A stretch of DNA of 64,000 nt from Vampirovibrionaceae bacterium NZW_1234 (GTDB lineage: Bacteria > Cyanobacteriota > Vampirovibrionia > Vampirovibrionales > JAGQHJ01), in NCBI GenBank assembly GCA_041697335.1, contig JBGUGD010000007.1, positions 128,001-192,000 of the forward strand. Reading direction: 5' to 3'. The position numbers and the translations under genes are program-made. The notes under the pieces are model-generated. The model made no database searches. It was not told the origin of the DNA and was given only the letters and a program-made list of their open reading frames with translations. Position 1 is the first letter of the stretch; the number at the start of each line of letters is the position of its first letter. Shown piece after piece: positions 18,588-53,554 of the stretch.

Positions 18588-18622
18588 AAAAGCCCCTCCG
18601 GACGAACTGTCTGGAGGGGCTT
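18588..18622 (-). terminator. Attenuator terminator hairpin upstream of metX-metB
   Basis: Minus-strand AAGCCCCTCCAGAC-AGTTC-GTCCGGAGGGGCTT followed by TTAACTGTTCTT. Confidence 0.8.
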
Positions 18623-18650
18623 GTCAAATCTGATGAGCTTTTGAGTAGGA

Positions 18651-18782
18651 CTAATGCGACAAGAAAGTTCCTCCGGACAGCCTGAACGGCATCGGCATCA
18701 TCATCATCGCCATGGTGGAATGACCCAAGCGCGAAGAAACAACTTGGGAGGGCATGTGTTGAATTGTGGTTAACAACAACAT
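18651..18782 (-). CDS. Met-rich leader peptide of metX-metB (43 aa)
   Basis: MLLLTTIQHMPSQVVSSRLGHSTMAMMMMPMPFRLSGGTFLSH; 6 Met in 8 codons; its 3' part is complementary to the terminator 5' arm. Confidence 0.85.
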   Translation of the reverse strand: MLLLTTIQHMPSQVVSSRLGHSTMAMMMMPMPFRLSGGTFLSH

Positions 18783-18905
18783 CTGTATCTCATTCCAGCC
18801 TAAGGTATTATATAAAAACACTTGATGCGTTTGAGGAACCATCGTTGCAAATTTTCAGGGACTTGTCAAACAAAAATTAAAAAACGTAACAGCCAACTCA
18901 AGCGG

Positions 18906-19697
18906 TTATATGGGTTGAAGCAGGGGTGTTGACGCTTGTTGTGCAACAAAATCCCAGAGGGTTTTCCGAGCATTTAGCGCCTCTTCAATGGCCGCTTCTG
19001 CCACTGGAATCAGTGCCGGTGTTTGAGTCAAAAGCTCATCCAGAATTCGATGGGCTCGTGGGCCGTGCTCTTCCCCATCCAGTTGAATGTGACGCTCAAG
19101 GTAAATAAGAAATGAGGCGCAATTTAAGCCGTGACGATGGAGTTCCGAGACCATTTCCATAAACATTTTGGGAATAATATCTTCACGGGCATGAAAGAAC
19201 ACGGCAGCCTGGACTTCCGGTGGGGCCTCCAACACGCGGAACGTGGTTAAGATGAAATTTTGAACTTCAGCAGGTAATGCTGCTTCTGCCAGTGCATCAG
19301 CCAGGGGGTGTCCTTTGTCCAGGGCAGCAATTACTGTTGTAATGGGGCCAAGGTCGCATTTTGCTTCGTCCATTGCGTTTAAATAAAGCTGAAAGTGACT
19401 CAATGTCTGGTTATTAATTCTATCCGTCTCTTCATCTAAGATGATTTCGTTGATCAGGCGAGCCAGTTCCAAGTTTTTGGGAGGCCGCCAAGGGAGGATC
19501 ATGCCTGTCAAATGAAGCTGAAGACTCTTGACCAGTGACATAAAATCCCAGACACAAAAAATGTGATGCTCCATGAACAGTCTTAAGGCTTGAGGAGAAT
19601 CTATCTGGGCGTAAACCGGATGGTCTTTTAACGCGTGTTTAAGCTCAACAATCCGGGACGAGGAAAAGAGTGGCTGTGTCATGGGGCTGACTTTCAT
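18906..19697 (-). CDS. DUF3050 / heme-oxygenase-like fold protein
   Basis: HPVY, FMEHHIFCVWDFMSLVK, RLINEIILDEETD, SHFQLY and YLERHIQLDGEEHGP. Confidence 0.85.
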   Translation of the reverse strand: MKVSPMTQPLFSSSRIVELKHALKDHPVYAQIDSPQALRLFMEHHIFCVWDFMSLVKSLQLHLTGMILPWRPPKNLELARLINEIILDEETDRINNQTLSHFQLYLNAMDEAKCDLGPITTVIAALDKGHPLADALAEAALPAEVQNFILTTFRVLEAPPEVQAAVFFHAREDIIPKMFMEMVSELHRHGLNCASFLIYLERHIQLDGEEHGPRAHRILDELLTQTPALIPVAEAAIEEALNARKTLWDFVAQQASTPLLQPI

Positions 19698-19726
19698 TGA
19701 TTAAGGGGGCCAATTTATCGTAAGGC

Positions 19727-21814
19727 TTACCCGGGGGATTGTCCAGTTGCATGCTGAAGGGCGGTCTTCAGAACGGTCCTGAGGGATTGGGCCATGTCTT
19801 TGTGCGTGTCAGGCAGCCCTGCCAAGTTCCCTTTGACCGGATCGCAAGCAGCGATATATAAGTTCTTGAGCTCAGATTCACTCAACTGCTTCACGCGAGC
19901 TGAGTAATGTTCACTAATGGCCAAAAGCTCTTCACGTATGGCAGGCAGTGGCTCCGGATCTCGCAGTAGTGAAAGTACTTTGGTCTGTGCTGCCGGTGAT
20001 GGAAAGGCAGTTGCCGGAATGCTTTTTTCAATGAATTCAGCAAATTGAGTTGCGAAAGATTTTGCCAGATCGGTTTCATGTTTCTCACCGTCCATAACCA
20101 CGGTAGAGCGCAACGCATTGGCCATACGCTGCAGGACTTTTAAATACTCATTGGGGGCGGTTGAAATACCGCCACTCGACTTTACGATGTCGCTGAGTTC
20201 TTCTTGAAGAATCGATTTCATTGTTTTTCCATTCATCGACAACTCGACCCCTAAGCCATCCGTAAATGATTCCACCGTGTTCATGACGCGACGGTTGAGA
20301 AGTTCAATCCCTTTGTCTGTAGGGCTTTCCCAGGGGCGTTTGTCTTGTTGGAACCGTTCGCTCACCACTTGGCGGATCAGCCCCGCAATTTCACCATCAT
20401 CCAGCGGTCGGTTAAACAGTTTGAGTTGGAACTGGGTGACGGGATCCAAAGGCTGATTTTTCTGTTTGGAAGCGTTGACCTCTTTCACAACCGCTTTAAC
20501 CACACTGATGATGCTGCGAGTACTGTAGCCGGGATTTTGATTAAGAATGGCAATGATGGTTGGGCGCTGGATGGCTTTATTGAGCTTTATTCCACCTTTG
20601 GCCAGCTCATTTAAAACGATTTCTGCCAGTTTATCCTTGGCTGCGTAATCAATAAACAGGATGCCTTCATGGACACGGCTTTTGGCTGCCCCATCAAAGG
20701 CAGGGAGTTGGTTACTGGTTGCCAGAATGCGTAATTTGGGGAGTCGCATCTTTCCACTGGCATTGCCCATGGCATTGACAATGGTTTTGTTCAGTTCCGG
20801 GAACTGCTCCATTTCATTGACGACCAGTAGAATTTCATCAAACGGTTTGCCATGAAGTTTTTCCAAGATTTTTAAGGCATGCTTGGATTCCACCTCATCG
20901 CCCCCGTAGACACGGTAGAGTAAATCTCGCGTACGAGCATCAAAGCCGGGATCGAGGCAAACGACATTTCCCTTTTCGAGACGCTCTCTGGCGACGGTTT
21001 GTAACAGGAATGTTTTGCCTGTACCGGGTGGACCTTGGGCAATGAGAAAATCTTTATGGCCTTTGCGAAAATCGTTGACCATGTCTTGAGTTGCTTGGTC
21101 ATAATAGCGCAAAGATTCCGTAACCGGGGTTTTAACATCTTCGAAAGTTTTAATGGAACGTTTCAGCGCATCTTCAATCGGGCCTTTTTCCATCATGGGC
21201 CGAAAGACATGGCGGAACAACAACCATCCGGCCAGGGAGGTCAAACCAAAAATCAGGATGGGCACAAATGTTTCTTTCAAGGTTTCTGTAAGTGCACCCG
21301 CCGCTTTTTCCGATATGGGTGTAACACGAGCTTGGAATTGATACGGAATGCCCTGCTTGTCGAGGGCATGGGTAAATTCTTTTGTGTTCTTCGGCAGGGT
21401 TGTTTTGAGCCACTGTTGATCGGCTAACTGTAACTTTGCGACCGGCAAGGCCATTAATGCGTGAGTATCGGTTTCAATGATTGCTCCAGTCACTGCATTG
21501 GATTGAATGAGTGTCATAGCATGCGTATAGGGCACAGTGCGAGAAGCACCCGAAGAAGGAGGGTCAATCTTGTCTCGTGTCTCTTGTGGTTGTTGTTTTT
21601 CTACCGCCAGTTCATCGGTGAATGGCTGTGCGGAGATTGAAGCGGTAGGTAATTCCTGCGAGGTTTGGAAAGTACTGTAGTAAGGTTGTGGTGGCCAATA
21701 GGGGCCAGGGTAGTTAGCTTGCATGGGTGTTGAGGAATAGTAGGGTGAAGAATAGGTCGGATAACCCCAGAAGGGATAACGAGCTGAATTGGCATACATA
21801 TAGGGAAACGACAT
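19727..21814 (-). CDS. Membrane-anchored AAA+ ATPase-like protein (FtsH-like N-terminal half, no protease motif)
   Basis: Tyr/Pro-rich N-terminus, one TM segment, GPPGTGKT, degenerate Walker B LLVVNE, LATSN. Confidence 0.75.
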   Translation of the reverse strand: MSFPYMYANSARYPFWGYPTYSSPYYSSTPMQANYPGPYWPPQPYYSTFQTSQELPTASISAQPFTDELAVEKQQPQETRDKIDPPSSGASRTVPYTHAMTLIQSNAVTGAIIETDTHALMALPVAKLQLADQQWLKTTLPKNTKEFTHALDKQGIPYQFQARVTPISEKAAGALTETLKETFVPILIFGLTSLAGWLLFRHVFRPMMEKGPIEDALKRSIKTFEDVKTPVTESLRYYDQATQDMVNDFRKGHKDFLIAQGPPGTGKTFLLQTVARERLEKGNVVCLDPGFDARTRDLLYRVYGGDEVESKHALKILEKLHGKPFDEILLVVNEMEQFPELNKTIVNAMGNASGKMRLPKLRILATSNQLPAFDGAAKSRVHEGILFIDYAAKDKLAEIVLNELAKGGIKLNKAIQRPTIIAILNQNPGYSTRSIISVVKAVVKEVNASKQKNQPLDPVTQFQLKLFNRPLDDGEIAGLIRQVVSERFQQDKRPWESPTDKGIELLNRRVMNTVESFTDGLGVELSMNGKTMKSILQEELSDIVKSSGGISTAPNEYLKVLQRMANALRSTVVMDGEKHETDLAKSFATQFAEFIEKSIPATAFPSPAAQTKVLSLLRDPEPLPAIREELLAISEHYSARVKQLSESELKNLYIAACDPVKGNLAGLPDTHKDMAQSLRTVLKTALQHATGQSPG

Positions 21815-22653
21815 TAGTGTTGACTCCGTTTTTTAGCCAGTTCAAAGCGACTGAGGAAAATACCAATCATCCCGACGGCAACAGTACCAGCAACGATCAT
21901 GGCCATGAGGTTGCTGGCTCGTCTTAATTCGGAAAAGAGTTTGGTGAAAAATGCTTGATTGTACCTGGGGTTGGTTAGCCCTTTGCTAAGCAGCGACTTG
22001 ATAAACAACGACGGATTTTGACGAGCCATTGCTTTAACTTCGTGAGTTGAAATGCCCAGTGGTTTGGCAATGATAGGAATCGCCAGTTTTTCCAGACCGG
22101 AAGCATTACCTACAACCCGATGAAATTGCTGGGTATACCCAAGCACTTCCCGCTCCATTTGAATGACTTGAGCGGTCATCGGATTGCGCAGCTTGAGGCG
22201 TTTGATGGGTTCAGCCATTTCCAGGGGGGAAGCACCCATGGTTAGTGCCAGGTTTACTCGGGATAGTGTTCCGGCAGAATCGGGATGAAGAATTGTTTGA
22301 CCCATGGGACGAGACATACCATGTTGGGTCAGCCATTGCCCGAGGGATAATGCTTTGTCCCGATGGTGGGTTAATTGGGCAAAGTCTTGGACTATTTGAG
22401 ACTCGGCATTATAGGACTTGTACAGGAGGTAGGCGAGACCACCGGCCATTAAGGATAAAGGAATGTCTGTTCTTACCAAGCGTTGCTGCATGGTTTTTAA
22501 ACGCACTTGTTGTTGAAGAATATGAAAGGAGATGATCTCCTGCTCCATGTCGTCTTCGGGCTCGGATGAATGTTTTTTGGGTGAGGCGGCTCTCAGACTA
22601 CTCCGATGTAATGGAGTAGTGACTTGAGGATAAGGACTCATGAAGTGAACCAC
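21814..22653 (-). CDS. Hypothetical membrane protein
   Basis: 279 aa ORF with two hydrophobic segments; stop overlaps the next start (TAATG). Confidence 0.75.
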   Translation of the reverse strand: MVHFMSPYPQVTTPLHRSSLRAASPKKHSSEPEDDMEQEIISFHILQQQVRLKTMQQRLVRTDIPLSLMAGGLAYLLYKSYNAESQIVQDFAQLTHHRDKALSLGQWLTQHGMSRPMGQTILHPDSAGTLSRVNLALTMGASPLEMAEPIKRLKLRNPMTAQVIQMEREVLGYTQQFHRVVGNASGLEKLAIPIIAKPLGISTHEVKAMARQNPSLFIKSLLSKGLTNPRYNQAFFTKLFSELRRASNLMAMIVAGTVAVGMIGIFLSRFELAKKRSQH

Positions 22654-22668
22654 CAGGCGGGTCTCCTG

Positions 22669-23934
22669 TTAATCATTCAGATTGAGTGTATAGCGCTCAT
22701 TGGGGTCAAATGTGAGTTTGGGCAGTGGTGCTACGTCTTCCTCATGTTGGTGGGATTGCCCGTTTAACATGGTTGCGCCCGCAGCGGGAGGAACGTGAAA
22801 CAAGGAAACAAACTCCAGCCCTGAAAGTCCTGTTTGATTTGCAGAAGGTACTTTTGAGCGTAAATCCGGATCCGCTTTAACCAGTGCGCGAATGGTTTCG
22901 CTTGGAAGACCGTTTTTGAGCCAATGCTTTATAGGTTTCAGATCCACTTGATACACAGAGGGGGCTTGTTTGGGAAATAAGCGTTCAATCGTTGTCTGAT
23001 AGGTGGATGGCAGTTTGAGGCTATTTGGTATTTGAGCCGGATTGCCGACGTAAGGTTTTACAGGTATACCCACGGCCTTTAAATGGTTTAAATAGCCTTT
23101 CAAATCCTCTTGCTGAGGCTCAACCACAACGGCCAATGTGTCGAATTTCCCAAACTGTTCATGAGCCAGGAGTCCCAGTAGATTCGTTAATCCTGTGGGT
23201 GCAATGTCCATGTTTTCCATGGTTGGGAATTCACGTGCGGAAACCATAACCAGTTCGTTGGATTTTGGTTCAAGAACCTGGGTTAGAACGTATCCCATAG
23301 AGACTGGTGTGGTGTGGGGTTTGTTGTCTTCGGGAAACATCTGATGCACGATTGACAGGAGTGTCGGTTGAGTGGGATCCGCTGGGGGCGTCAGTGAAAT
23401 GTCACATAAGGGGACCGTGTCCATGGATTTGGGATAGGTCCGATATTGGACGGGTTTTTGAGGCACTTTGGCAAAGGCGCCACAGACTGTTGTAAATAAG
23501 CTGCCTTCCGCAGGAATCTCCAGTTTGATTTGGTTCTTGGCAGCGCCATGAAGGGCTTGGCGTTCCATAACCGCCGCCTTGATGCGGTTATCATCACATT
23601 GCGCCGGGGTGACCAGGCGAGTGGCATGGTCATGAACCATATAATCGTGCTGGGTTTGAGCGGAAATATTTCGCATCAATCCGCCAGCTTCAATGGTTTC
23701 ACCTTGTTTAATCTTATCAATACTGTTATAGGCGTTTTCAATAATGCCAATGGATAAGCAAATGGGACACATACAGCCTGCAAAGCGGAGATGGCCTGAG
23801 GGCGAGTTACCAGGCGCTTTGGTTGCAATGAAGCGATCCGTCATGTTGGGCTGCCATGTCAGAGGTTTTTGCCCCGGGATAGGGATCTTCTTCGCAGGGA
23901 ACTGAGAGGATGCTTGAAAAGACTGGACTTTCAT
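22669..23934 (-). CDS. Hypothetical protein with LRFAG leader and CMCPIC motif
   Basis: Likely start MKVQSF at 23934; the track start 24156 overlaps the upstream gene and the Fur-like box. Confidence 0.75.
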   Translation of the reverse strand: MKVQSFQASSQFPAKKIPIPGQKPLTWQPNMTDRFIATKAPGNSPSGHLRFAGCMCPICLSIGIIENAYNSIDKIKQGETIEAGGLMRNISAQTQHDYMVHDHATRLVTPAQCDDNRIKAAVMERQALHGAAKNQIKLEIPAEGSLFTTVCGAFAKVPQKPVQYRTYPKSMDTVPLCDISLTPPADPTQPTLLSIVHQMFPEDNKPHTTPVSMGYVLTQVLEPKSNELVMVSAREFPTMENMDIAPTGLTNLLGLLAHEQFGKFDTLAVVVEPQQEDLKGYLNHLKAVGIPVKPYVGNPAQIPNSLKLPSTYQTTIERLFPKQAPSVYQVDLKPIKHWLKNGLPSETIRALVKADPDLRSKVPSANQTGLSGLEFVSLFHVPPAAGATMLNGQSHQHEEDVAPLPKLTFDPNERYTLNLND

Positions 23935-24006
23935 TGAATTCACAAGCCAATAATGTATTTTCAACGTTGATTTCTTTTGTGGCTGATTGAGGGTGGAGAA
24001 TTTGAG

Positions 24007-24033
24007 TTGCAAATAAGAATCATTCTCAATAAG
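24007..24033. promoter_or_regulatory. Fur-like box 2
   Basis: TTGCAAATAAGAATCATTCTCAATAAG, 25/27 identical to the box at 13928. Confidence 0.7.
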
Positions 24034-24127
24034 CCTGGGTCCACCGTAAGAGAAAAGTACTATGTATGTCAAGTCAAAGAAAAATCGGGCTACTGTCGGT
24101 TTTATATACTTTTCTCTGCCAAAACCT

Positions 24128-25825
24128 TTAATTTGTAGGTTTCGATTGGATACCAAGTCGCTTTACTTCTCGATACAAAGCACTTCGGGTTAAACCGGAG
24201 TCTTCAATCATATTATTGATGCGGTAGTCATGACGCTTGAGCAATTGTTCCAAATAGGATTTTGAAGCTAGATCGACAACGGTTGTCAGTGGCTTCGTAT
24301 CCAAATGCTCGACAGCCTGCTTTAATGATTCAAGCCTTGCTTCAATGGGTGGAATAGGGATAGCCGGATCTGCCTGGAGAGCATTTGTTTTACCTTTCAG
24401 TTCGGTTGGGAGGCCGATACCCAATCGTGACAACTCCCGATAAAAGGTCATCACAGCCAATCCTGATTTTGTAGCTGCCTTTGGGACCTTAAAGTCGTTT
24501 TGCTTCAAGGCATGAAGCAGATAGGTTTTTGCCACAAGGTCTCTTAAGGGAGGCAAGGGGCCATCGATGAATTCGCTGACCGCATGATGGAGTTGCTCTT
24601 CGGTGTCGGCAGGAGCCGCTTCATCTTGAGAACGATTGATACGGAGTAAATCCAAGCGGACCTTGTCATCCCACAGCCCCATATTCTTCGCCGTTGCGGT
24701 AATCACGCCGCCGCACAGCTGGTGACGTTGTTGAAGCACCGTTTGATAGACCAGGGCATGAAGTTTATCCCAGGTCAGGTCACCAAAGGCGGCAAGGACC
24801 TGCGCGAGAACACCATTACGAGTATCTGGGGTCAAATTATCTAAATTCATCGGTTTTGCTGAAGGCGGGCTTATTCCCAGATCAGTGGCCTGGATTGCGG
24901 ATTCTTCTCCATTAATCACTGCGCGTTCAATCACGTTCTCCAATTCGCGAATATTGCCTGGCCATGGAGCATTTTTTAAAGTATGGAGGGCCTCTTCAGA
25001 AAACCCACCCGGAAAGGGCTTCCCATATCTTTCGCTGAATTTTGCCAGAAAGTGGTTTGCCAACAGCGGAATATCTTCCTGGCGCTCTCGTAACGGGGGC
25101 ACCCGAATGGGAAACACATTGAGTCGGAAGAACAAGTCATCGCGAAACTTTTTTTCGTCGACCATTTTGGGGAGATCCTGCTTGGTGGCCGTGATGACGC
25201 GAACATCAACGGGGATTTCATCGTTACCCCCCACCCGTTTGATGGTTCGCTCCTGAAGTGTGCGCAGCAGATCCGATTGACACTTGGTCGACATATCACC
25301 CACTTCGTCGAGAAACAATGTTCCACCTGAAGCTTGCTCAAAGATGCCAATACGTTGGCCCGCTGCACCACTGAAGGAGCCTTTCTCATGGCCAAACAGC
25401 TCCGATTCTAAAAGACCTTCCGGGAACGCTGCACAATTCAGGGCTTTCAGCTTTTTACGCGGGCTTAATCCATGAATGGCTTTTGCAACCAGTTCTTTAC
25501 CTGTCCCTGTTTCACCGAGGATGAGTATCGTGGCCGTGGTTGGAGCCACTTTCTGTATTGTTTTGCGGACCTGCTGCATGGCCGGGCTGGTGCCGATGAG
25601 AAAGCGGTCCAGATTGGCTGGAGTAATTTCCTGCGTTTTTATGGATACGCTTTGAAGCGGCTCGTTTCCGGTAAACCGGAATGAAGCTGAATAGAAATAT
25701 GTGGCGGTAGATTGAGGCTTTTGATCTCGATAATGGGTACGGCTTGCACTTGTGTAAAACGACTGAGGCACATAACTATGCCCTAGTGTGCTATATGAAC
25801 CAAGTCGCATCATTACCGAACCCAT
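24128..25825 (-). CDS. Sigma-54 interaction (NtrC-type AAA+) transcriptional regulator with multiple HTHs
   Basis: [37 protein letters not shown] and [10 protein letters not shown]; no receiver domain. Confidence 0.9.
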
Positions 25826-26170
25826 CTATGAATCGCTCATTCGGGGGATTAGTTAGTGTCAGCGCTTTGAAACAGAGGCCTTACCGTCCCCAACCAATTC
25901 CATTGTATGTAAGTCATCACGGCGACTTCAAGCTTAGGTTTTAAAACTGTTACAATATTGAACTAAATTTGAAGGTCTAAATGATAATTGAGATCGTAAC
26001 CGTTAAAGCCTGAAGTGGTTATTCTGTTTAAGTTCGGAACAATTTCTGTTGGGGCCACCCAGTATTGATTTACTCTAAAGATCACGCCTTCTGCTTTACG
26101 GTAGAAGATGCCCCTTATTATTTTGATAAGCGGGTTCGTATCCTATAGTAGGCTATGCCCAATTCGCTTT

Positions 26171-27373: not shown

Positions 27374-27445
27374 GCCTCGTTTTTTCGGAGGATTTACGCT
27401 ATGCTGAAGTCCCAATATTCACGTATTGATCTGTCTCGATAAGAT
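27374..27445 (+). repeat. Direct repeat copy 1 (duplicate of tpx upstream region)
   Basis: GCCTCGTTTTTTCGGAGGATTTACGCTATGCTGAAGTCCCAATATTCA...TATTGATCTGTCTCG.TAAGAT. Confidence 0.9.
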
Positions 27446-27497
27446 CAAAAAGTTACGAAAATTGGTGATCAGAAACGCCCAGGAGTCATGTCATCAA

Positions 27498-28199: not shown

Positions 28200-28291
28200 T
28201 GTAATTAATGAATTTTGCTTTTGATAATTTGACTAACTTACTCTGATGGTAGATGAAATCTCTTGCAATGCAAATTTAACCCTCGAGTCGC

Positions 28292-29145: not shown

Positions 29146-31491
29146 ATGGGTATAATTACGTTTCAAAATTTAAATGTCGGCGCGTTGCTTGCTCAGAAGT
29201 CTAAGAGAGCCTCAACGCAACGAGGCACCCCAACAGAGGCCCCCATTAACAGGCGTTTGGGGGCGTTTGCAACGTCTTCCTCTATTTCCCCTCAAAACTG
29301 GAGAGCCTACAAGCTCCAGGTACCCCGGTTTGGACGCCACTTGACCCAAGGGGATCGCAATCATTTGCAGTATTTAGGTGCACATTACCTTGGCAATAAT
29401 CGGGCCGTTTTTCGGGTTTTTGCTCCTGCTGCCAAACAAATGCAGCTTCAACTGACATCTTCCAGTCATCACGGGGCCTACTATGATCCAGTGGCTCCCG
29501 ATGATACGCGAACACTCCCGATGAAACCTCATCCGAGAGACCCTCGGGTCTTTGAAATTGAAGTGGATCAGGTGGTGCCGGGCCACTTGTATCGGTTTGT
29601 TCTTGAGGCAGATCAATCCCGTCGGTACTTGAAAGATCCCAGATCGCAGTTTCAACCCAATGATACGTTTGGTTGGTCGCAACTGATCGATCATGGGGCT
29701 TTTCAATGGACTGATTCTCAATGGAAATCTCCATTTTCCCATCGCAATGACTCTGGTCAGTCAGGAATTCCACCCGGTATGGTGATGGCGGAACTCCATC
29801 TGGCGACCTTGGGGGGATATGATGCTGCTAAAAAAGAAATTGATCGACTTGCGGCAGAAGGTGTCTGTAATACGGTTGAGATTATGCCAATCGGAGAAGG
29901 CTATGGCAAGCTGGGGTGGGGGTTTGATGAGGTGGATAAATTTGCCCCTGAAAGTGGTTTAGGGAGTCCGGAAGCCTTCAAATCACTGGTGGATTACAGT
30001 CATAAAAAGGGTTTAAGTGTTGTTTTGCATGTCGTTCCCAATCACTTTGGACCCTATGGGAATGTCGTTCATGAGTTTGGTGAAGCCTTGGCCTCCAAGG
30101 ATACGGGGTGGGGCCGTCGGCTGAATTTTGACAGCCATAATCGTGACTATATGCGTGATTACATGGTTGACATGATGATGAACTGGGTCGTGAATTATCA
30201 TGTGGATGGATTTCGCATGGATGCGTTGCAAGAGGTGGATTCCGATCAGGCGATGAAACTGATGACCTCCGAATTGCGAAGTCATCCCGAGACGTCGAAG
30301 ACAATCCTGATCGCCGAAAGTATGACCAAATCCAAGCGTCTTACGGCACCTCTGGAAGCTCATTTTATTAACAATCCCGAAGATGAAGTCAACAAGGCCC
30401 AAGCATGTTCTACAGCGCTTCTAAAACAAGGTTATGATGCGCAAGAGATTTTTGATTTTCGAAGTGTCGTGACTGCTTTGGCGATGGATTGGACCATCTA
30501 CGACTGTTCCCCGAGTATTGATGACTTGGCGACAGTATTTCGTCAAGGACAGCGCTACTTTGAACCTTATGGTCAGCATTTACCAACACCACCAGGGTCA
30601 AACAATGTGATCTATGTCAGTGCCCACGACGAGAACGATACGTTCGGGGGAACAAGGCTAGTGCCTCGCTTAATTGCGACTCGGTTAGGTCTGACCCCGG
30701 ATCGACAGTTGACAGATGCCCATAAGCTTAACAAGAAGCCGTTTCGAGATGTATTACCCCTTTTAAAACTGTATCTTCAGCCTAATATGACAGAACAGCA
30801 ATGGAACCAACAGACGGGTGCTCTGGGGTTATCGTTTCAGGTTCCATTGAGTCGGTTTGCTCAGGCCTATCATGAGGCAAAAGCGCTTAATCGTTTAACC
30901 ATGGGGACAATGTTTGTCCATCCTGGACAGAAACGTGTCTTTATGGGCGATCAGCGAGGTGAACTGGCACCTTTTAATTTTAATGGCGAATATCCACCAG
31001 ATGCGAAACATGGGGATAAACCTCTGGCAGATTATGTTTCCGAGCAAAAAGGGTATCGACTGGGCCATGAGGCCTATGCTCAATCTTTGCTGGATCAACC
31101 CGAACTGACCGATCCGATTTGGCAGCGCCAAATGCTTTTATATAGTCAAGATTTGGCGAGATTGCTTCGTACGAACAAAGCTCTGAATAATGGGAGCTTC
31201 ACAAACCTTAAAACCGCTGTGAATCAGCAGCATAAGTTGTTGTTTGTTCATCGCTGGCAGGATAACCATGAGGTGATCGCTGTGATGAACTATGGAGAAA
31301 AGGACTTGCAGAATTTTTCTCTCAATAGCTTTGGCATTTTTCCTCAAGGAACTTGGGAAGAGGTCTTAAACAGCAACGAGGCCAAGTATGGGGGAGACGG
31401 CCAGAACGTGAACGGTGCAAAAGGTATTACTCAACAACAATCTCAAGTGTCGGTTCCTCGACATAGTCTTTTAATTTTTCAAAAGCGATAA
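29146..31491 (+). CDS. GH13 alpha-glucan enzyme (TreZ/branching-enzyme-like) with PRFG leader
   Basis: FRVFAP CBM48-like start; VVPNHFGP, DGFRMDA, IAES and SAHDE; C-terminal WEEVLNSN...YGG. Confidence 0.85.
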   Translation: MGIITFQNLNVGALLAQKSKRASTQRGTPTEAPINRRLGAFATSSSISPQNWRAYKLQVPRFGRHLTQGDRNHLQYLGAHYLGNNRAVFRVFAPAAKQMQLQLTSSSHHGAYYDPVAPDDTRTLPMKPHPRDPRVFEIEVDQVVPGHLYRFVLEADQSRRYLKDPRSQFQPNDTFGWSQLIDHGAFQWTDSQWKSPFSHRNDSGQSGIPPGMVMAELHLATLGGYDAAKKEIDRLAAEGVCNTVEIMPIGEGYGKLGWGFDEVDKFAPESGLGSPEAFKSLVDYSHKKGLSVVLHVVPNHFGPYGNVVHEFGEALASKDTGWGRRLNFDSHNRDYMRDYMVDMMMNWVVNYHVDGFRMDALQEVDSDQAMKLMTSELRSHPETSKTILIAESMTKSKRLTAPLEAHFINNPEDEVNKAQACSTALLKQGYDAQEIFDFRSVVTALAMDWTIYDCSPSIDDLATVFRQGQRYFEPYGQHLPTPPGSNNVIYVSAHDENDTFGGTRLVPRLIATRLGLTPDRQLTDAHKLNKKPFRDVLPLLKLYLQPNMTEQQWNQQTGALGLSFQVPLSRFAQAYHEAKALNRLTMGTMFVHPGQKRVFMGDQRGELAPFNFNGEYPPDAKHGDKPLADYVSEQKGYRLGHEAYAQSLLDQPELTDPIWQRQMLLYSQDLARLLRTNKALNNGSFTNLKTAVNQQHKLLFVHRWQDNHEVIAVMNYGEKDLQNFSLNSFGIFPQGTWEEVLNSNEAKYGGDGQNVNGAKGITQQQSQVSVPRHSLLIFQKR

Positions 31492-44201: not shown

Positions 44202-44210
44202 GCTTGGTAT

Positions 44211-45626: not shown

Positions 45627-45885
45627 TTGGGTATGTACCTAAAATCGTGGTTGGTAGGACTATTAAGGGCGAAAATCCAAATCTCATTGGTATATTACCA
45701 CGAGACGTTTGCCTGTCTCAATTAATTTAGCATTTTGTTCGGCGTTAAATCAGGGCTTCAAACGGAATTAGTGCTTTTCATATCATTGTGGCCTTGAGGT
45801 TCGCGCTAAAAGACTTGGCAGGAAGTTAACCACTAAAATTGAAGCTTCAAAGGGTGAGTTAGGGGCTCTGTAGAGGAAAAACTGT

Positions 45886-46518
45886 TTATGAATTGCCAGT
45901 AAAGCGATTTTGGATCACGACGTCGTGGTATGGCAATTGTCCGCCGCGTGGTCGAGCCGGTTCCAGGGCTTTGCCCACGGTGACCATCAAGGCGATGACA
46001 TGATCCTCTGGGAGGTCAATGATTTTTGCCACCTCAACGGGATCAAACCCCACCATGGGGCAGCTGTCATAGCCCATGCTCCGTGCGGCCAGCATTAAGG
46101 TTTGGGCGGCCAGGCCACAGGAGCGCATGGCTTCGTCACGTTGCAGCTGGGGTTTGTCTTTATAGAAGTTTTCGAGCATAGGGACAAGGGTATTTTGAAT
46201 TTCTGCTGGGGCATTTTTCCAGTACCGCTCTGGGTTTTTTTCAGCAGCTCTGAGGTCTGCGCAAAACACCACCGTAAAGGAAGAATCTGTAATTTGTGCT
46301 TGGTTCCATGCCGCCTCTCTGAGCTGCTGCTTGATTTCGGGAGCGGTGACGAGGACCAGTCGCCAGTTCTGAATATTAAACGATGTGGGGGACAGCAAGG
46401 TGAGTGACAGTAAGGTTTCCATGTCGGCCTGTGGCATGGCAAAGTCCGGATCATAGCGCTTGACGGCCCGCCGGGTTTGGATGGCTTCTACGGTATTTAA
46501 CAAGGTTTGTGTTGGCAT
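45886..46518 (-). CDS. Nitroreductase family protein
   Basis: RRAVKRY, SPTSFNIQNW and SCPMVGFD. Confidence 0.92.
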   Translation of the reverse strand: MPTQTLLNTVEAIQTRRAVKRYDPDFAMPQADMETLLSLTLLSPTSFNIQNWRLVLVTAPEIKQQLREAAWNQAQITDSSFTVVFCADLRAAEKNPERYWKNAPAEIQNTLVPMLENFYKDKPQLQRDEAMRSCGLAAQTLMLAARSMGYDSCPMVGFDPVEVAKIIDLPEDHVIALMVTVGKALEPARPRGGQLPYHDVVIQNRFTGNS

Positions 46519-46604
46519 TGGGGTTTTTCTCCTGATGGGTTGTGTATAAAGCTATCCGTCAACTCTAGAAAGTAGGTGCTCTCTCGTAACTCGAATTTAT
46601 GGGC

Positions 46605-47357
46605 CTAGACCTCTAAAGGCACTTGATAGGAGGCAACATCAATTTGTGGCAATGTGGCATGCCCGGTTTGAAGCCAATGTTGTGCAATCAGCCAATCATC
46701 TTCATAGTCAATGGAAAACCCTTCACTCGGATCAGTCAGAAAGGGAGCAATAATGCGTCCTTCTCGTGAGTTTGTTTCAAATACCACTCTGCTCCACGCC
46801 ATCTCCAAACTGCTATTTTGAATATAGACTTTGGGGCAATCCTGGTATTGTCGCGCATGGTAGGGCACGTCTAAATGATCTTGAGGCAAAAGAGGTTCCA
46901 TCAGCGTATCGTTAATAATCCACATTTTGCCAGGATGTTGCTTGCAAAGCTCAACGGCCCGGATAGAGTCAATGCCCGATTGACTGAGGAATTGGGTCTT
47001 CGCTCGTAAAATGGTTTCTACCTGGCGAAACGGGCTGGTGGGCCGAAGGATTGCAAAGGCGTCATAGGTTTCACCCAGATTGCTGAAAGTATACTTCAGC
47101 CACTCAATATCGGGGGATGTGGATGAGGCGAGTTCTGGAGGCCGAAGAAAAGGAACATCGGCACCATAGTGGCGAGCCACATCGGCAATCGCCTCGGAGT
47201 CGGTCGATACCAGAACGCGATCGAAGATGTTGCTTTGAAGGGCTGTCTGTATGGCATAGGCCAAGAGCGGATGCCCTCCCAAGGGGCGAATATTTTTGAG
47301 TTTGACACGTTGTGAGCCTGCTCGAGCCGGAACAAAAGCAATCAATTTGGCGGACAT
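46605..47357 (-). CDS. Acylneuraminate cytidylyltransferase (NeuA family)
   Basis: PARAGSQRVKLKN, VSTDS, LRPTSPFR and SIDYEDD. Confidence 0.93.
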   Translation of the reverse strand: MSAKLIAFVPARAGSQRVKLKNIRPLGGHPLLAYAIQTALQSNIFDRVLVSTDSEAIADVARHYGADVPFLRPPELASSTSPDIEWLKYTFSNLGETYDAFAILRPTSPFRQVETILRAKTQFLSQSGIDSIRAVELCKQHPGKMWIINDTLMEPLLPQDHLDVPYHARQYQDCPKVYIQNSSLEMAWSRVVFETNSREGRIIAPFLTDPSEGFSIDYEDDWLIAQHWLQTGHATLPQIDVASYQVPLEV

Positions 47358-48298
47358 GCCAGCAAACTCCTTTCTGAATGATGTATGGTGTATTGAGCTT
47401 CTTCGATAGAGCGGATACGTTCAACCAGCGTAGCAATGGTGTGGCATGGAATCTGGAGGTGTTCGCCAAGTCGCATTAAGGCACCACCGATGGCATCCAC
47501 TTCAGTGGTTTTTCCAGAGTAGAGATCTCGTTGCATGGATGTTCCCAGTGTGGCCGGGAGCTTATCAATAAAGGCCAGCACTTCTGCCGTCTCGAAGGCT
47601 AGACCCATGGCTTTGGCTACGGTTACACCTTCTCGGACACAGCCTTCAAGAGCATTACGATATTCAGGGGTATTGCGTATAACTCCCAATTCGCAGTTAA
47701 AGGCCGAGGTGGTGAGGGCCAGTGCATTCAGGCGCACCAGTTTATCAAACAGCACTTGATTTTCATCGGCGTAGGTTTCAAAATCCACTCGACTTACCTG
47801 AAGTTGGTTGGCCAGGGCTTTTAAGTCGGCCATGGGAAAATCCTGGGAAGCCCACTGGATAAGCGCAAAGTGAGAGGTGTGGTCAAAACGGTTGGGCGCG
47901 ACATACTTGGCTTCAATGCGGACCACGCCGCCAACCAGTCGTGGCCCGAAAACTTTTCGCAGTGTATTCATATGCTCATACCCGTTCAGTAGGGGTACGA
48001 CCATGCCGCTTTGTAAGGCATTTTGAGAAATACGCTTCAGGGCTTCAGACAGATGTTGCCCTTTGGTCGTGACAAAAAGGATGTCAACGGGCGCATCTAA
48101 GCAAGCGGTGGCTTCAGGGTGGGCGACAATGGTGCCGAAGTCCACACTGTTAACAAGGATGCCTTCTTTTTGAATCAGGGCGGTGGTAGACTCACGTGCC
48201 ACACAGGTGACAGGGAAACCGGCTTGCCAGAACATTGCTGCCAGAAAGCCGCCAACTGCACCGGGGCCCAGAATGCCAATGGAGGGTTTATCGTTCAT
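47342..48298 (-). CDS. Ketopantoate reductase (PanE/ApbA) family protein
   Basis: ILGPGAVG, LLNG and TSMQRD...TEVD. Confidence 0.88.
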   Translation of the reverse strand: MNDKPSIGILGPGAVGGFLAAMFWQAGFPVTCVARESTTALIQKEGILVNSVDFGTIVAHPEATACLDAPVDILFVTTKGQHLSEALKRISQNALQSGMVVPLLNGYEHMNTLRKVFGPRLVGGVVRIEAKYVAPNRFDHTSHFALIQWASQDFPMADLKALANQLQVSRVDFETYADENQVLFDKLVRLNALALTTSAFNCELGVIRNTPEYRNALEGCVREGVTVAKAMGLAFETAEVLAFIDKLPATLGTSMQRDLYSGKTTEVDAIGGALMRLGEHLQIPCHTIATLVERIRSIEEAQYTIHHSERSLLACPPN

Positions 48299-49514
48299 GA
48301 GTGGCAACTAAGGGTTTTACCACACCGGAACCTGAAGGATTTGGCCAGGGGTGGGCACGCAGAACCTCTTCATTCAGATCTGCACCCCAGCCCGGAGCTG
48401 TTGGCAGGTGTAGATAACCGTCTTGAATCTGTGGCACGGCTGTAATCAATTCTTCTCGCCAGGGAACATCATCGACATCGACTTCGAAAATTCTTAAATT
48501 CGGGACAATTGCACAGAAGTGGGCACCGATCAGCGTGGCTAAGTGGCTATAATAATTGTGAGGCGCCACGTTCATCTCGTGGATTTCGGCCAGATCTGCA
48601 ATTTTCTTGGACTGAGCAAGGCCATTCCAAGGTATGTCTACCATCACAACCGACATGGCTTGTTTCTCCAGGAAGGGGCGATATTGACGAGCGGTGTAGA
48701 GATTCTCGCCAGAACAAATTGGAATGGTTGTGGCGTTTCGTATGGTCTTCAGGGCATCCGGGTCGTAGCAATCGACTTCCAGCCAGAACAAGTTGAAGGG
48801 TTCCAAGGCTTTTGCCATCTGGATACAGCCCTCAGGTTTAAAGTTGAAGTTCAAGTCCAACATAATGTCGACATTCGGCCCAACCGCATCTCGAAACGTG
48901 CCAATGACGGAGACAACGTGATCAATGAGTTTTGGGGGTATGTTCTGGTCAACACTGCCCTGATCTCGACGAAAGCCCTGCATAAACACGTGGGGATTAT
49001 CCGGATCCAGGACCAGCATATTGGTTTTAAAGGCCGTGTAACCTTTTTCAACCACTTCTCTACCCAGCTCGGCCACATCGCCCAGTGTGCGGACAGGCTT
49101 CACATTGGCATGATGAGCTGCGCGAACCCGGGTTGTTCCGCAATGGGACCAGTAGGTGCGTATCTTCTCGCGAACAGGTCCTCCGAAGAGTTCATAAACG
49201 GGCACACCCAAGTCTTTGGCTTTGAGATCCAGGAGGGCATTTTCGATGCCGCCAAGGGCCTTCTGGACAATGCCGCCTGGACTTTGGCGAGTGGCCCGAT
49301 ATAAATCCCAGTAAATTTTTTCATAGGGACGCGGATCCTGGTTCAGGAGTAAGGGCTTGAGATCGTCAATGCATCCGGCAATGGCCCGGGGAGAGCCGTT
49401 GGAGTCGGTAATTTCGCTATAACCGATTAATCCTTTATCGGTTGTGATTTTGATAAAAATCCAGGGACGCCATCCAGCGTCACAAAACAGGGTTTCTACA
49501 TTGGTGATTTTCAT
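48288..49514 (-). CDS. Mandelate racemase/acid-sugar dehydratase (enolase superfamily)
   Basis: Start MKITNVE at 49514; ALLDLKAK...PVYELFGG, FKTN, WLEVD, SGEN and APHN. Confidence 0.9.
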   Translation of the reverse strand: MKITNVETLFCDAGWRPWIFIKITTDKGLIGYSEITDSNGSPRAIAGCIDDLKPLLLNQDPRPYEKIYWDLYRATRQSPGGIVQKALGGIENALLDLKAKDLGVPVYELFGGPVREKIRTYWSHCGTTRVRAAHHANVKPVRTLGDVAELGREVVEKGYTAFKTNMLVLDPDNPHVFMQGFRRDQGSVDQNIPPKLIDHVVSVIGTFRDAVGPNVDIMLDLNFNFKPEGCIQMAKALEPFNLFWLEVDCYDPDALKTIRNATTIPICSGENLYTARQYRPFLEKQAMSVVMVDIPWNGLAQSKKIADLAEIHEMNVAPHNYYSHLATLIGAHFCAIVPNLRIFEVDVDDVPWREELITAVPQIQDGYLHLPTAPGWGADLNEEVLRAHPWPNPSGSGVVKPLVATHER

Positions 49515-49639
49515 AGGGTGTTCTCCGGGCTGCACGTTGCCATCATTGATCACGTGTTCGCCTTGATGATAGCACAAACCTAAGGGTCTTCCCTCTGCAA
49601 TCCCACAGGAAACCTGATGTATTTGAATTGAAAAAAGGG

Positions 49640-49723
49640 TGGTGGGCAGAACAGGACTTGAACCTGCACGCATTGCTGCACTGGTACCTAAAACCAGCGC
49701 GTCTACCATTCCGCCATCTGCCC
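49640..49723 (-). tRNA. tRNA-Leu (TAG)
   Basis: GGGCAGATGGCGGAATGGTAGACGCG CTGGT-TTTAGGT-ACCAG, long variable arm, GTTCAAGTCC, encoded CCA. Confidence 0.95.
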
Positions 49724-50347
49724 ACGACGGCACTCCGATGGGATCGGAGACGCTGAGGTAATGAGGCTATTTTACACCAGTCTTTGGGCCGAGACTAGGT
49801 GTTATTCACGGCGTGTTCAATCGTGCGAAATGTCTTAGCGTGCGTGTTGAAATGCTTTATCCGTCATAAAAAAGAAGCTTTTTGGTTAGAAATGCGATGT
49901 CTGGGAATGATTGTCAGGGTTGTTGTAGCTAATGTTATTGTAGGGAAAAGGTTTTTTCTTTGTAAAAGGTTTGAAAATTAGGCAAGATGGGAATAATTAT
50001 GGAAAAAAGGTTTGTGTGACTTCCATGAAGACATTTCTCCGGTACATATCAGGGTCAAATCGACAAAATACGACAAATCGCGTCGTTTGCCCCCAGAGTT
50101 TGAAGATGAAATGCTGAAACGCTCTTCTTGAGAGGGTTTTGGCTTTTGTGGTGTTGGTAACCCGACGCGAAACCGACGTTGAAAAGACGAATTTTACCGC
50201 GATTCTACCGATAAATTGCCGCGAGCGTGTTTTCTGCGAGGGTTTCATCCGCGACACCTTGATGCTATGGTAACGGATGGATGGGAAGACAATGGGTCAA
50301 GGAAGACGATTCATCCAGTGACATAGGGTAATTGGGAGATAAGGGCC

Positions 50348-51451
50348 ATGGGGATACCTCGTGTTTTTCCGACATCTGTGCGCTTTGGCTGGTTCGATCA
50401 TGGTCATCATGCCATTGATACCGGGGCCATAAACCGACTACCGCAACAAACTCAAGATGAAAGGCAATGGCAAGGGTTTTTAAAGGAAAACCTGCAATTC
50501 ATCCATGACGAAGATGATATGGAGGATCTGGTTTATGACGGCCCGATGCATTATGTGGATCTGGATAAATGGCTTCGCCCCGACGTTCCGGTCGCTCACG
50601 AGAAGAAAATGGGGGTTTCTTGGGAGGAGGCCCAAAACGCTTTTTCTGAAGAGGAGCGCCATCGGTTACACCAGCGCTGGCATGCCTCCAGTATTGAACC
50701 CGAGGACTTCTATCGCCCGCGGAACATCTTCTTATCCGTGATGCAGAAATACGATATGGTGAAACGCCAGTTGGAATCCATTGCTCAAGGAAATAAGCGC
50801 CTTTTGACGGTGGCGCCAGGCCACACCAGCCGGGAGTTAAATATTCAACGGAACTTTTACCTGGAGCTGGTGCGCAATGTGGGTCGATTGTCACATTACA
50901 TTGGCGATTTGTTTATGCCACTTCACTTAACACGTTATCACGACTGGCTCTTACACCCGGATGCGAAGGCCGAACAGCACGCCTTTACCGAGGGCATGCA
51001 CTTTTTTCTGGAAGGCAAAACCTTGACGACCCAGGATTATCAATCGCTTCTAAGCACCCCTGTCAAAGCGCCGCCAGGACCACCTCTGAATCGAGAGGCC
51101 CTGAGAACCTACCTGATTGAGAAGATGCAGCAAACCTATGGCCGGATGTATGACCTGGTCAGACTTCAACAGCAGGCGCTTGCCCAGAAGCGTGAGCACG
51201 CCAGTACCGACCTGTACGAAAAGCGTCTGGCGGAAGCGGTAAAGCCCCTGTTATTAGAGCAACTGCAATCGGCACAAGAGGCCTTGGCAGTGACACTCCA
51301 ATCGGTATGGCACGAAGCAGGACGACCAGTAGATTTTCGCTCCACTCAACCGGTTTCACTTCAGCAGAAAGCTTGGTCTGCCTTGATCAGTTTGCCCCGG
51401 AAGCTGGTGGGCCTGCTCCTTCGACGAACACCGCCTGAGGGGAAAAATTAG
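50348..51451 (+). CDS. Zn-dependent phospholipase C / S1-P1 nuclease superfamily protein with VRFG leader
   Basis: WFDHGH, HYVD, SHYIGDLFMPLH and HFFLE zinc-ligand pattern. Confidence 0.8.
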   Translation: MGIPRVFPTSVRFGWFDHGHHAIDTGAINRLPQQTQDERQWQGFLKENLQFIHDEDDMEDLVYDGPMHYVDLDKWLRPDVPVAHEKKMGVSWEEAQNAFSEEERHRLHQRWHASSIEPEDFYRPRNIFLSVMQKYDMVKRQLESIAQGNKRLLTVAPGHTSRELNIQRNFYLELVRNVGRLSHYIGDLFMPLHLTRYHDWLLHPDAKAEQHAFTEGMHFFLEGKTLTTQDYQSLLSTPVKAPPGPPLNREALRTYLIEKMQQTYGRMYDLVRLQQQALAQKREHASTDLYEKRLAEAVKPLLLEQLQSAQEALAVTLQSVWHEAGRPVDFRSTQPVSLQQKAWSALISLPRKLVGLLLRRTPPEGKN

Positions 51452-52013
51452 TGTTCGATTGGTAGGGACTTGTTAGGGAACCTGCTGGCAGCGGCGGTTT
51501 TGTTTTAATGTTGCTTTCAGCTCAAATAAGACGTTGAGCACGCGTGAATTCTGTTTGGTCCAACCCATCGGGTGTGCCGGTAGACCCCGCCCCAGGGTGC
51601 TTTTAGATAGTTCTGACTGACATCCCGATGTCGCTGTACATTCTTGATGCGATTCGCCCGTAAGCCATTCCAGCGTTTCCTGTTCTAATATCACCCACGG
51701 TTGCAAGTCCGAGGCCAGTCGTGTCCAAGACGGTTTCATAAAGTCTCTCCTCATTTCACTGCTTAACGACACATTATCTATAGCACTGTCTATAGCAATA
51801 AAAACGAGTATTGGGTTTAGATTGCATTAATATTTCCTTCGCAAGGATCTGTTATTTGCGATAATGTTCTCCCAGACAATGTTTTAGCGATCTCTTAAGT
51901 CATTCTTAAATCTCGATATATGTAGATTCAGGAGAAAGAAAAAGGATGTCTGACGGTTTCAAACGATCAGACACCCGAAGGAGCAATCGAAAATAGCTCG
52001 ATTGACAGCGGAT

Positions 52014-53282
52014 TTAGCGAATCCGCTGAATCACCAGTTTTTTGGATTCCAAGGGATTCAGGCCCAGGCGAGCGCTGGCATTGTCAAAGTTCAAGGCAAT
52101 TTCGACGAAGCGTTTGTCTGGTTTCGGGCTGTAGGTGCTGCCCAAGTACAAGACAGGGTCTTTTTTGGGGACTTGGGCAAAGAATTTTTTCAAGGGCAAT
52201 TGCAGCGGCGTAATGGGATCTGTGGGATCGGCGCTTCGAATTTCAAATACCGCATCCTGGGCCAAGAGCTTTTCTGCTTGTTTGGCGTTGAGAATCAGGT
52301 TCGTTTTGATGTTACCGAAGGTTCGGTCTTGAACGCCATAAAATTCCGTGCCCTTGTCGCTTGCTTTTAGAGGCAGAGAGACGATGGATTGGGCAAATGG
52401 GGTGATCTTGGGCGTAAATTTACGAGCTCGTTTCTCATCACATAAGGCTTCCGGGGCAATGCCGTTGGCAATGGCCGCAGCTGCCACCATAAACACATCT
52501 CGCCCGTGGAAGGTTTCAGGCAGTGTGTAGCTGGGGTTTTTCAGGCGAATGCGCTCCAGTTGCTGAACTTTTTCCAAATCGATGGGCAGGAGTTTATAAC
52601 GTTCGCCTTTTTCTTCCAGACTCTTGATGGCCAAGCTGAAAATGCCGTTATTGGGGCCAATCACCAAGCCGTAGTTCTCCGTGATGAGAATGCTTCGATC
52701 ATGGGTGATTTTTTTCTTTCGGGTCTCCCCATTACCAACACCGGGGTCACACACCAGAACAACAATGTCTTTGTTTGGACGTGATGTTGCAATCCGTTGC
52801 AGGGTGAGTGCAGCGTAGTCGGTATTCCCGAAGGGAATGTCGGACAGGGAGTGAACGGGGATGGTGTCGGCTTTTTTCGGTGTTGAGAACACCCCTAAAA
52901 TGGCGTTTAGAACTGTCTTTAAAATCGCTTTGATTTGGCCGATTAGTGATGTGTCCGGTGCTTCTTTGGGGGCGCGATTCCAGCGCTTAAAGGGTTGCAG
53001 TTCCTGGCCCCGGGTGTCGGTGAATTTTAAGACGTCCCGGTAACGACTGATGGCTTCGGCATTGGAGCTGGCATCGTTAAAATCGGTAATGAGGTGAACA
53101 TTTTCAATGGGGGCTTTAACCCAGGATTTTCCAAATCGCAGGTTTGGCAAGGAATGTAATGACCCTGCGCCTTTTAGGAGGCTGTGACGAGCGGGCACCC
53201 GTTGGGAAATCTGCGCTGGGGATTTTTTTAGGGGAAGGGTGTGTTGTGTGACAGTGTGGTGAATGGGGTGAATGTGGGACAT
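52014..53282 (-). CDS. SAM hydroxide adenosyltransferase / SAM-dependent halogenase (DUF62) family with LRFG leader
   Basis: LITDF, VCDPGVG, GPNNGIF, TFHGRDVF and FGNIKTN. Confidence 0.85.
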   Translation of the reverse strand: MSHIHPIHHTVTQHTLPLKKSPAQISQRVPARHSLLKGAGSLHSLPNLRFGKSWVKAPIENVHLITDFNDASSNAEAISRYRDVLKFTDTRGQELQPFKRWNRAPKEAPDTSLIGQIKAILKTVLNAILGVFSTPKKADTIPVHSLSDIPFGNTDYAALTLQRIATSRPNKDIVVLVCDPGVGNGETRKKKITHDRSILITENYGLVIGPNNGIFSLAIKSLEEKGERYKLLPIDLEKVQQLERIRLKNPSYTLPETFHGRDVFMVAAAAIANGIAPEALCDEKRARKFTPKITPFAQSIVSLPLKASDKGTEFYGVQDRTFGNIKTNLILNAKQAEKLLAQDAVFEIRSADPTDPITPLQLPLKKFFAQVPKKDPVLYLGSTYSPKPDKRFVEIALNFDNASARLGLNPLESKKLVIQRIR

Positions 53283-53319
53283 GAGGGAGCATCCTTTCGG
53301 GGTTTACTGACAGAACAAT

Positions 53320-53357
53320 AAAAAAGACCGCCGACCTGGTGGAGGTCGGCGGTCTTT
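53320..53357 (-). terminator. Attenuator terminator upstream of the SAM hydrolase
   Basis: Perfect 15 bp stem AAAGACCGCCGACCT-CCACC-AGGTCGGCGGTCTTT ending in a T6 run, ~40 nt before the start codon. Confidence 0.9.
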
Positions 53358-53374
53358 GAAGCTTTGGGTTCGAC

Positions 53375-53485
53375 TTATCTCGATCCGGCGCTGCACGTGC
53401 CAACCTCCACCAAGAAGGGCATCATCATGGTGGACATCATCATGGCAGTGGTTTGTGCAGCGGTTTGGATGGCAAGAGTCAGCAT
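53375..53485 (-). CDS. Met-rich leader peptide of the SAM hydrolase (36 aa)
   Basis: Hand translation MLTLAIQTAAQTTAMMMSTMMMPFLVEVGTCSAGSR*; 6 Met in 8 codons; contains the antiterminator strand. Confidence 0.85.
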   Translation of the reverse strand: MLTLAIQTAAQTTAMMMSTMMMPFLVEVGTCSAGSR

Positions 53486-53525
53486 GGGAAAATTTTTTTC
53501 AAATTTAAGGTCAAACTTGGTAAGA

Positions 53526-53554
53526 AGAATAACAGCGTTCTCGTGTGCTGTCAA
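53526..53554 (-). promoter_or_regulatory. Sigma70 promoter for the leader/SAM hydrolase transcript
   Basis: Minus strand TTGACA-17 nt-TATTCT with TGn extended -10. Confidence 0.7.

Follow-up and report, generated by a model that had tools for sequence, protein, structure and literature searches.

Methionine-codon leaders with matched antiterminators precede metX-metB and a divergent DUF62 gene in a Vampirovibrionales genome

Two short leader open reading frames (ORFs), each carrying a dense run of methionine codons ahead of an intrinsic terminator, were found in a 64,000-nucleotide stretch of Vampirovibrionaceae bacterium NZW_1234, a non-photosynthetic organism related to the cyanobacteria (GCA_041697335.1, contig JBGUGD010000007.1, positions 128,001-192,000 of the forward strand), hereafter the window. 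Leader 1 precedes metX-metB, and leader 2 precedes the gene for a divergent paralog of the S-adenosylmethionine (SAM) hydroxide adenosyltransferases, or DUF62 family (Table 1). Judged from sequence, both leaders very probably act as ribosome-stalling attenuators that sense charged elongator Met-tRNA.

The two leaders lie 34.7 kb apart on the minus strand, and the anatomy given for them in a preliminary description of this DNA (some 35 kb of separation, six Met in eight codons, an antiterminator strand 7-9 nucleotides after the last ATG, and different stems that each pair with their own terminator) was reproduced in full. The Met codons occupy positions 24, 26, 27, 28, 29 and 31 of leader 1 and positions 15-17 and 20-22 of leader 2, and the run is followed in both by Pro-Phe. 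Antiterminator pairing, which is mutually exclusive with that of the terminator, begins 7 nucleotides past the last ATG in leader 1 and 8 nucleotides past it in leader 2, while the stop codons lie 31 and 20 nucleotides, respectively, from the terminator hairpins. An equally good duplex was obtained in only 1 of 300 shuffles of leader 1, and the duplex of leader 2 is the best among 117 leader-like strong terminators in the source genome. Cross-pairing is weak (-10.9 kcal/mol for the leader 1 strand with the arm of terminator 2, and -15.6 kcal/mol for the reverse combination). The coding parts have a similarity score of 27, as compared to 25.3 +/- 3.4 in codon shuffles that preserve Met (p=0.31), and a common origin of the two leaders was dropped as a candidate explanation because their similarity is no better than in these shuffles. 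Terminator 1, whose U-tract is short, fails a strict pattern scan owing to a bulge, and the promoter scan returned no passing sigma-70-like site for leader 1. Neither leader matched an Rfam family at gathering score (Thr_leader reached 18 of 55 bits). Contigs from another run, of low depth and possibly related to the source sample, match positions 18586-18736 and 53207-53473 without a single differing letter.

Table 1. Positions of the leaders, their targets and other features. Positions are those of the window unless a contig (C) of the source genome is named; energies are in kcal/mol.
Feature	Position	Strand	Remarks
Leader 1 ORF, 43 codons	18651..18782	-	second in-frame ATG at 18755 is an alternative start
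Leader 1 control codons, 6 Met in 8	18690..18713	-	
Leader 1 antiterminator strand	18665..18682	-	pairs with 5' arm of terminator 1, -20.2
Leader 1 intrinsic terminator and short U-tract	18588..18622	-	hairpin 18622-18590, -23.5
metX, homoserine O-succinyltransferase	17445..18491	-	NF006449, 311.9 bits, cut-off 296
metB, cystathionine gamma-synthase	16212..17420	-	TIGR02080, 567 bits, cut-off 504.6
Leader 2 promoter, sigma-70-like, extended -10	53526..53554	-	10/12 matches
Leader 2 ORF, 36 codons	53375..53485	-	
Leader 2 control codons, 6 Met in 8	53420..53443	-	
Leader 2 antiterminator strand	53399..53411	-	13 contiguous pairs with 5' arm and loop of terminator 2, -27.7
Leader 2 intrinsic terminator and U-tract	53320..53357	-	hairpin 53357-53323, 15 pairs, -27.2
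Divergent SAM hydroxide adenosyltransferase (DUF62) paralog, 422 residues	52014..53282	-	N-terminal extension ending Arg-Phe-Gly
Third Met leader and target gene	C29:117394-118899 (L025:895-2400)	+	429-residue helical protein downstream
Ile/Val/Leu leader before ilvB	C14:135665	-	several relatives likewise
Phe/Tyr leader before DAHP synthase-like gene	C26:172654	+	
Trp leader before DAHP synthase-like gene	C12:7730	-	
His-rich leader, antiterminator and terminator	C7:71422 (L044)	+	precedes uncharacterized 563-residue protein with Arg-Phe-Gly N-terminus
Tandem Gln/Arg leaders with terminators	C37:101308 and 101127 (L046)	-	precede 502-residue protein
Acyl-CoA dehydrogenase fused to long-chain fatty acid CoA ligase, then thiolase and hydroxyacyl-CoA dehydrogenase genes	4400-8491	+	
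tRNA gene	49643-49723	-	

The source genome as a whole holds a third such leader, on contig C29, which shares the terminator stem of leader 2 and bears out the earlier proposal of a Met-attenuation regulon. Three of the 227 genes preceded by leader-like terminators have at least four internal Met within eight codons (4, 6 and 6), against 0.045 per genome expected from dinucleotide shuffles (n=200), in which five or more Met were never reached. The terminator scan was incompletely sensitive, the Trp leader on contig C12 having escaped it, and the Met search was therefore rerun without the terminator filter. This yielded 53 intergenic frames with at least three Met in eight codons before a gene, and Met-rich runs were also present within five long reading frames. 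Such abundance would be expected if the leaders were constitutive terminators with chance ATG repeats and no regulation; only three of the 53 frames, however, have a hairpin of -24 kcal/mol or better (the next best is -18.9), and this enrichment, together with the conservation and matched pairing described below, makes chance an extremely unlikely explanation, as had been argued from the recurrence of the two window leaders. Two of the three targets are related to Met or SAM. The genome-wide scan that had been suggested for poly-Met leaders thus returned three with strong hairpins but none before metH or metG; none was seen either before the cystathionine lyase-like genes or the metY/metZ-like gene of the source genome, in which metE was not found.

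Leaders of the same design stand before cognate genes with other codons in the source genome: Ile/Val/Leu codons before ilvB, and Phe/Tyr and Trp codons before two DAHP synthase-like genes. His and tandem Arg leaders occur before genes of uncharacterized proteins. These bear on the possibility that the ATG run provides alternative starts, so that the switch would sense initiation (fMet-tRNA or general ribosome loading) and not stalling during elongation. Met codons are usable as starts, leader 1 has two candidate starts, no clear Shine-Dalgarno sequence was established, and the ORF of one homolog begins at the Met run itself. Nearly all homologs nevertheless keep an in-frame start several codons upstream of the run, and initiation is excluded where the same architecture uses Trp, Phe/Tyr, Ile/Val, His or Arg codons; we regard sensing of initiation as very unlikely.

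Comparison with relatives (Vampirovibrionales/Melainabacteria, with 49 genomes of the order in the counts of metY, metK and the strict leader pattern) revealed further Met leaders before three gene families. Each of the 10 orthologs of the third target (E<1e-40) is preceded by a leader with Met codons and by a terminator, and seven of these leaders have at least three Met; three of the ten were read by eye from sequence, the script having chosen another hairpin. Long DUF62 paralogs were found at 13 loci outside the source genome, two of them unreadable at contig ends, and 8 of the 11 counted have a leader ORF and terminator, with 3-6 Met in eight codons in four. Among 39 ordinary DUF62 copies used as a control, none has at least three Met upstream, with one row mis-parsed and many of these copies lying inside operons; a distant second DUF62 copy in one relative (G018) likewise has no leader, and a weakly matching 227-residue gene in another (G012) has a five-Met leader and was counted among the nine DUF62-type leaders of the pairing test. 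The metY gene is present in 19 of the 49 genomes and has 4-7 Met in eight codons upstream in 12, ten of them from one genus; a terminator with antiterminator pairing was found by script in 9 of these 12. Genes downstream supply the cognate amino acid in the case of metX-metB, both above model cut-offs, and of metY in relatives; for the DUF62 paralog this holds only at the level of its family.

Antiterminator strands and terminators are matched across these leaders. In the nine DUF62-type leaders a strand pairs with its own terminator at -21.4 kcal/mol, as compared to -15.4 kcal/mol with those of the others (permutation p=5e-5), and for a set of 20 leaders none of 20,000 permutations equaled the pairing with the own terminator. 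A strict leader pattern gave eight matches in the 49 genomes and none in a reversed control; seven are leaders of two of the regulon's gene families and one lies inside a thiolase gene. Matches to a covariance model below about 35 bits were mostly plain terminators or leaders of the ilvB, aromatic or Cys kind, with the exception of metY leaders and one further Met leader. An initial genome scan with a single DUF62 protein gave no matches, and metagenomes scanned for MetX yielded only one weak locus.

If the leaders are translated, the following sequence of events can be proposed. A shortage of Met-tRNA would stall the ribosome at the Met run, so that the antiterminator strand, 7-8 nucleotides downstream, could capture the emerging 5' arm of the terminator and let RNA polymerase proceed into metX-metB or the gene of the DUF62 paralog. 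With ample Met, the ribosome would pass over the antiterminator strand to the stop codon, 20-31 nucleotides upstream of the hairpin, allowing the terminator to form. An equilibrium model of the ribosome footprint is consistent with part of this scheme, since the antiterminator strand pairs with the emerging arm at 0.83-0.92 when the ribosome is stalled at the Met codons and at 0.00-0.03 when it sits on the strand. The third leader alone gives the textbook three-state pattern, with a protector hairpin when untranslated and the antiterminator only on stalling, at 0.58-0.67 at the later Met codons and 0.1 at the first.

Several results weigh against stalling on Met codons as the mechanism. When only the ribosome footprint is blocked, the antiterminator helix of leaders 1 and 2 still forms after the ribosome has reached the stop codon (0.88 and 0.92), and the complete terminator prevails in 5 of 6 stall states. 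At equilibrium the model therefore fails to tell stalling from arrival at the stop codon in these two leaders, and the switch would have to be kinetic or steric, for instance with the ribosome in the loop. Leader 1 stands alone, no homolog of it being conserved before any of the six other metX-metB orthologs. Among the 11 long DUF62 paralogs, four have leaders with only one or two Met among Ile/Cys codons (one read by eye) and three lack such a leader, while 7 of the 19 metY genes have no clear Met leader (one doubtful, six none). Taken singly, antiterminator pairing is significant as compared to shuffles (p<0.05) in 10 of 19 leaders and not significant in the other nine. The compared genomes are also kin, so that counts are not independent and kinship inflates the significance tests.

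The four mixed DUF62 leaders, together with the presence of Cys within or beside the Met run in 13 of 20 leaders, would suit a broader sensor of the sulfur and aspartate-family amino acids (Met and Cys, perhaps Ile), of which the Met purity of leaders 1 and 2 would be a local extreme. The control regions of these two leaders, however, contain neither Cys nor Ile, and only Met is readable there; a broader sensor is accordingly given little weight. It had also been suggested that the shared Met-Pro-Phe ending acts as a pausing motif, and a nascent-peptide arrest responding to a metabolite such as SAM or Met would fit both its presence at the close of the run in the two window leaders and the frequent occurrence of Pro within three codons in homologs. 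Among 18 other leaders none has Pro-Phe after the run, the peptides cannot otherwise be aligned, and the C-rich Pro codons of the third leader can be explained by pairing with its G-rich antiterminator strand. The suggestion was therefore not sustained, and arrest by the peptide itself is highly improbable. Stalling for lack of charged elongator Met-tRNA remains the preferred reading of both window leaders.

The history of leader 1 can be approached through the regulation of metX-metB in relatives. A search of 400 other genomes of the class brought up close metX orthologs in six, which all belong to the same order, and a SAM-I riboswitch lies upstream of metX-metB in all six, at the position of leader 1; because of this, metX-metB can be taken to be under a Met-type signal in relatives. 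Across 40 relatives, SAM-I occurred only at metX-metB loci (three genomes). No match to SAM-I (RF00162), at leader 1 or elsewhere, nor to T-box (RF00230) or MetJ was found in the source genome, which is 94.75% complete and for which 150 of 350 SAM-I candidates were scored. The absence of MetJ, SAM riboswitches and T-boxes that was to be checked thus holds for the source genome but not for its lineage. In a quick MetX tree of 83 rows (the top 75 matches, two more and the six loci; midpoint root), the window protein falls on a long branch within a 60-row clade (SH-aLRT 98) that includes all six SAM-I-linked orthologs. Leader 1 likely replaced a SAM-I riboswitch, which is the parsimonious reading of these sequences. 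SAM-I controls the operon by termination, as leader 1 is proposed to do, but its aptamer senses SAM.

The gene metK, present in 47 of the 49 genomes of the order, was not found in the source genome (best tblastn E 0.93). An assembly gap is at least as likely as loss. The ABC genes that follow metK in one relative (G004) lie mid-contig in the source genome (C10:27783-28820) without metK. If metK is truly lost, a SAM sensor would be a poor gauge of Met.

The claim that both targets yield Met was upheld for synthesis, metX and metB both scoring above their cut-offs, but release from SAM by the DUF62 paralog had been overstated. While the protein passes the Pfam gathering scores (SAM_HAT_N 52.9 vs 26.3 bits and SAM_HAT_C 28.8 vs 25.5 bits), it is far under the (R)-SAM hydrolase cut-offs (NF058624/NF053629, 59.3 vs 350 and 38.5 vs 470 bits), and its matches to solved DUF62 proteins are weak (best E 8e-8). 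Its DPGVG and TFHGRD motifs align to PH0463, whose catalytic residues we take to be Asp68, Arg75 and His127. The catalytic Asp and His align. The place of the Arg is ambiguous: the position of Arg75 abuts an insertion and aligns to Asp195, with the invariant Arg196 beside it. The paralog is set apart within the family by its length of 422 residues with an N-terminal extension and insertions, by the Asp aligned to Arg75 of PH0463, by its coexistence with an ordinary copy encoded separately in the source genome, and by its Met leader. Enzymes of this family (PF01887, PF20257) hydrolyze SAM, with Met and adenosine as products, and the passages available of PMC12120602 describe the physiological role of these enzymes as debated; the comparison also drew on parts of bioRxiv 10.1101/2025.08.29.672840. 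Release of Met from SAM by the paralog is plausible.

The third target has no Pfam hits. Its family comprises 393 representatives at E<=0.001, and an Atlas search with it returned only Melainabacteria clusters without names. Its predicted structure is almost wholly helical (pLDDT 91, as compared to 51 in an earlier model), and Foldseek gave no matches at E<=0.001; the best VIA match (Z 5.7, root-mean-square deviation 10.0 over 154 residues) shows neither a new fold nor a function. The hydropathy profile has only two strongly hydrophobic segments. From its regulation alone, the protein would be a Met importer. Five distant paralogs (L063, L067, L070, L076 and L079) have Trp or aromatic leaders, and in the source genome the Arg-led gene for the 502-residue protein gives a weak match to the family profile (E 1e-4) and the His-led gene gives none. 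The leader codons may therefore read out the substrates of paralogs in this family. Within the window, an 867-residue protein (59529-62132, minus strand) also matches the profile weakly (E 3e-6); its gene lies immediately downstream of that for an amino-acid permease of the APC family (62141-63532).

A wider interpretation, which we put forward tentatively and hold to be less likely than not, would unite these observations in an order-wide Met regulon controlled by ribosome stalling and interchangeable with SAM-I, in which leader codons reveal the substrates of two new scavenging tools. The DUF62 enzyme would free Met from SAM, and the helical membrane family would comprise new amino-acid transporters with Met, Trp/aromatic and Arg leaders. 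The riboswitch may have been dropped in the source genome because metK was lost. According to the parts available of PMC4451040, V. chlorellavorus preys on algae and has a limited capacity for amino-acid synthesis. Both putative scavenging proteins often carry an Arg-Phe-Gly tag and may perhaps act on or in a prey cell. The locus offers compact, testable examples of Met attenuation whose pairing is matched between genera, a natural exchange of riboswitch for attenuator at one operon, a physiological lead for DUF62, and guesses from leader codons as to the substrates of an orphan membrane family.

Classical leader-peptide attenuators control the trp, his, leu, thr, phe and ilv operons, while bacterial Met control is usually attributed to SAM riboswitches, T-boxes and repressors. 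The window leaders resemble classical attenuators, as presented in the overview passages available (PMC1262725, PMC2965389), in their clustered cognate codons, antiterminator/terminator pairing, U-tract and association with a biosynthetic operon. They differ in using Met as control codon, in having the stop codon past the antiterminator strand, in matching no Rfam family at gathering score, and in coming from a member of the Vampirovibrionales. The closest precedent is MetL, a 20-residue peptide with three Met codons before metBA in Campylobacter jejuni, for which tRNA-dependent antitermination was proposed (Porcelli 2013, PMC3847290, in the passages available). Translation initiation of MetL was later demonstrated, and a second Met-rich ORF (CJsORF19) was described before a Met transporter gene (Froschauer 2025, PMC11955535, likewise in the passages available). 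Like leaders 1 and 2, MetL is a Met-codon peptide before Met biosynthesis or transport genes for which a tie between transcription and charged tRNA is proposed; unlike them, it is found only in three Campylobacter species, and the passages available give no antiterminator covariation or test of regulation. The two systems are probably independent in origin. In the literature searched, ribosomal Met attenuation was represented only by this Campylobacter prediction and the evidence for translation, and no paper on a Met attenuator in Vampirovibrionales was found in the open literature, subscription papers and supplements being outside the scope of the search.

Other published elements are more distant. 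The parts available of Leyn 2014 (PMC4239095) list repressors and riboswitches as well as a beta-proteobacterial RNA element, metXZ, and the string 'attenuat' is absent from them; they describe metXZ as a conserved, structured element with a predicted terminator/antiterminator before Met biosynthesis genes, and mention no leader peptide. In the passages available of Seliverstov 2005 (PMC1262725), a search upstream of actinobacterial Met operons brought up no conserved RNA element, exchange of sensing systems between lineages was described in those of Naville 2010 (PMC2965389), and a term search of the available text of Weinberg 2017 (PMC5737381) gave nothing relevant. The mechanism proposed here is thus classical and its Met specificity has published precedent; what is new is an order-wide regulon with matched pairing, the exchange of riboswitch for attenuator, and two orphan targets.

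Cys-rich leaders with terminators were also noted in relatives, before a 329-residue unannotated protein (L193, in G044) and before a 505-residue protein with an N-terminal extension similar to those described here (L177, in G030). In the window, N-terminal extensions that end in Arg-Phe-Gly are encoded at 12371-13783, 29146-31491, 50348-51451 and 52014-53282, the last being the DUF62 paralog. Arg-Phe-Gly occurs within residues 9-60 of 146 of 3061 ORFs, as compared to 29 of 2440 in a control stretch.

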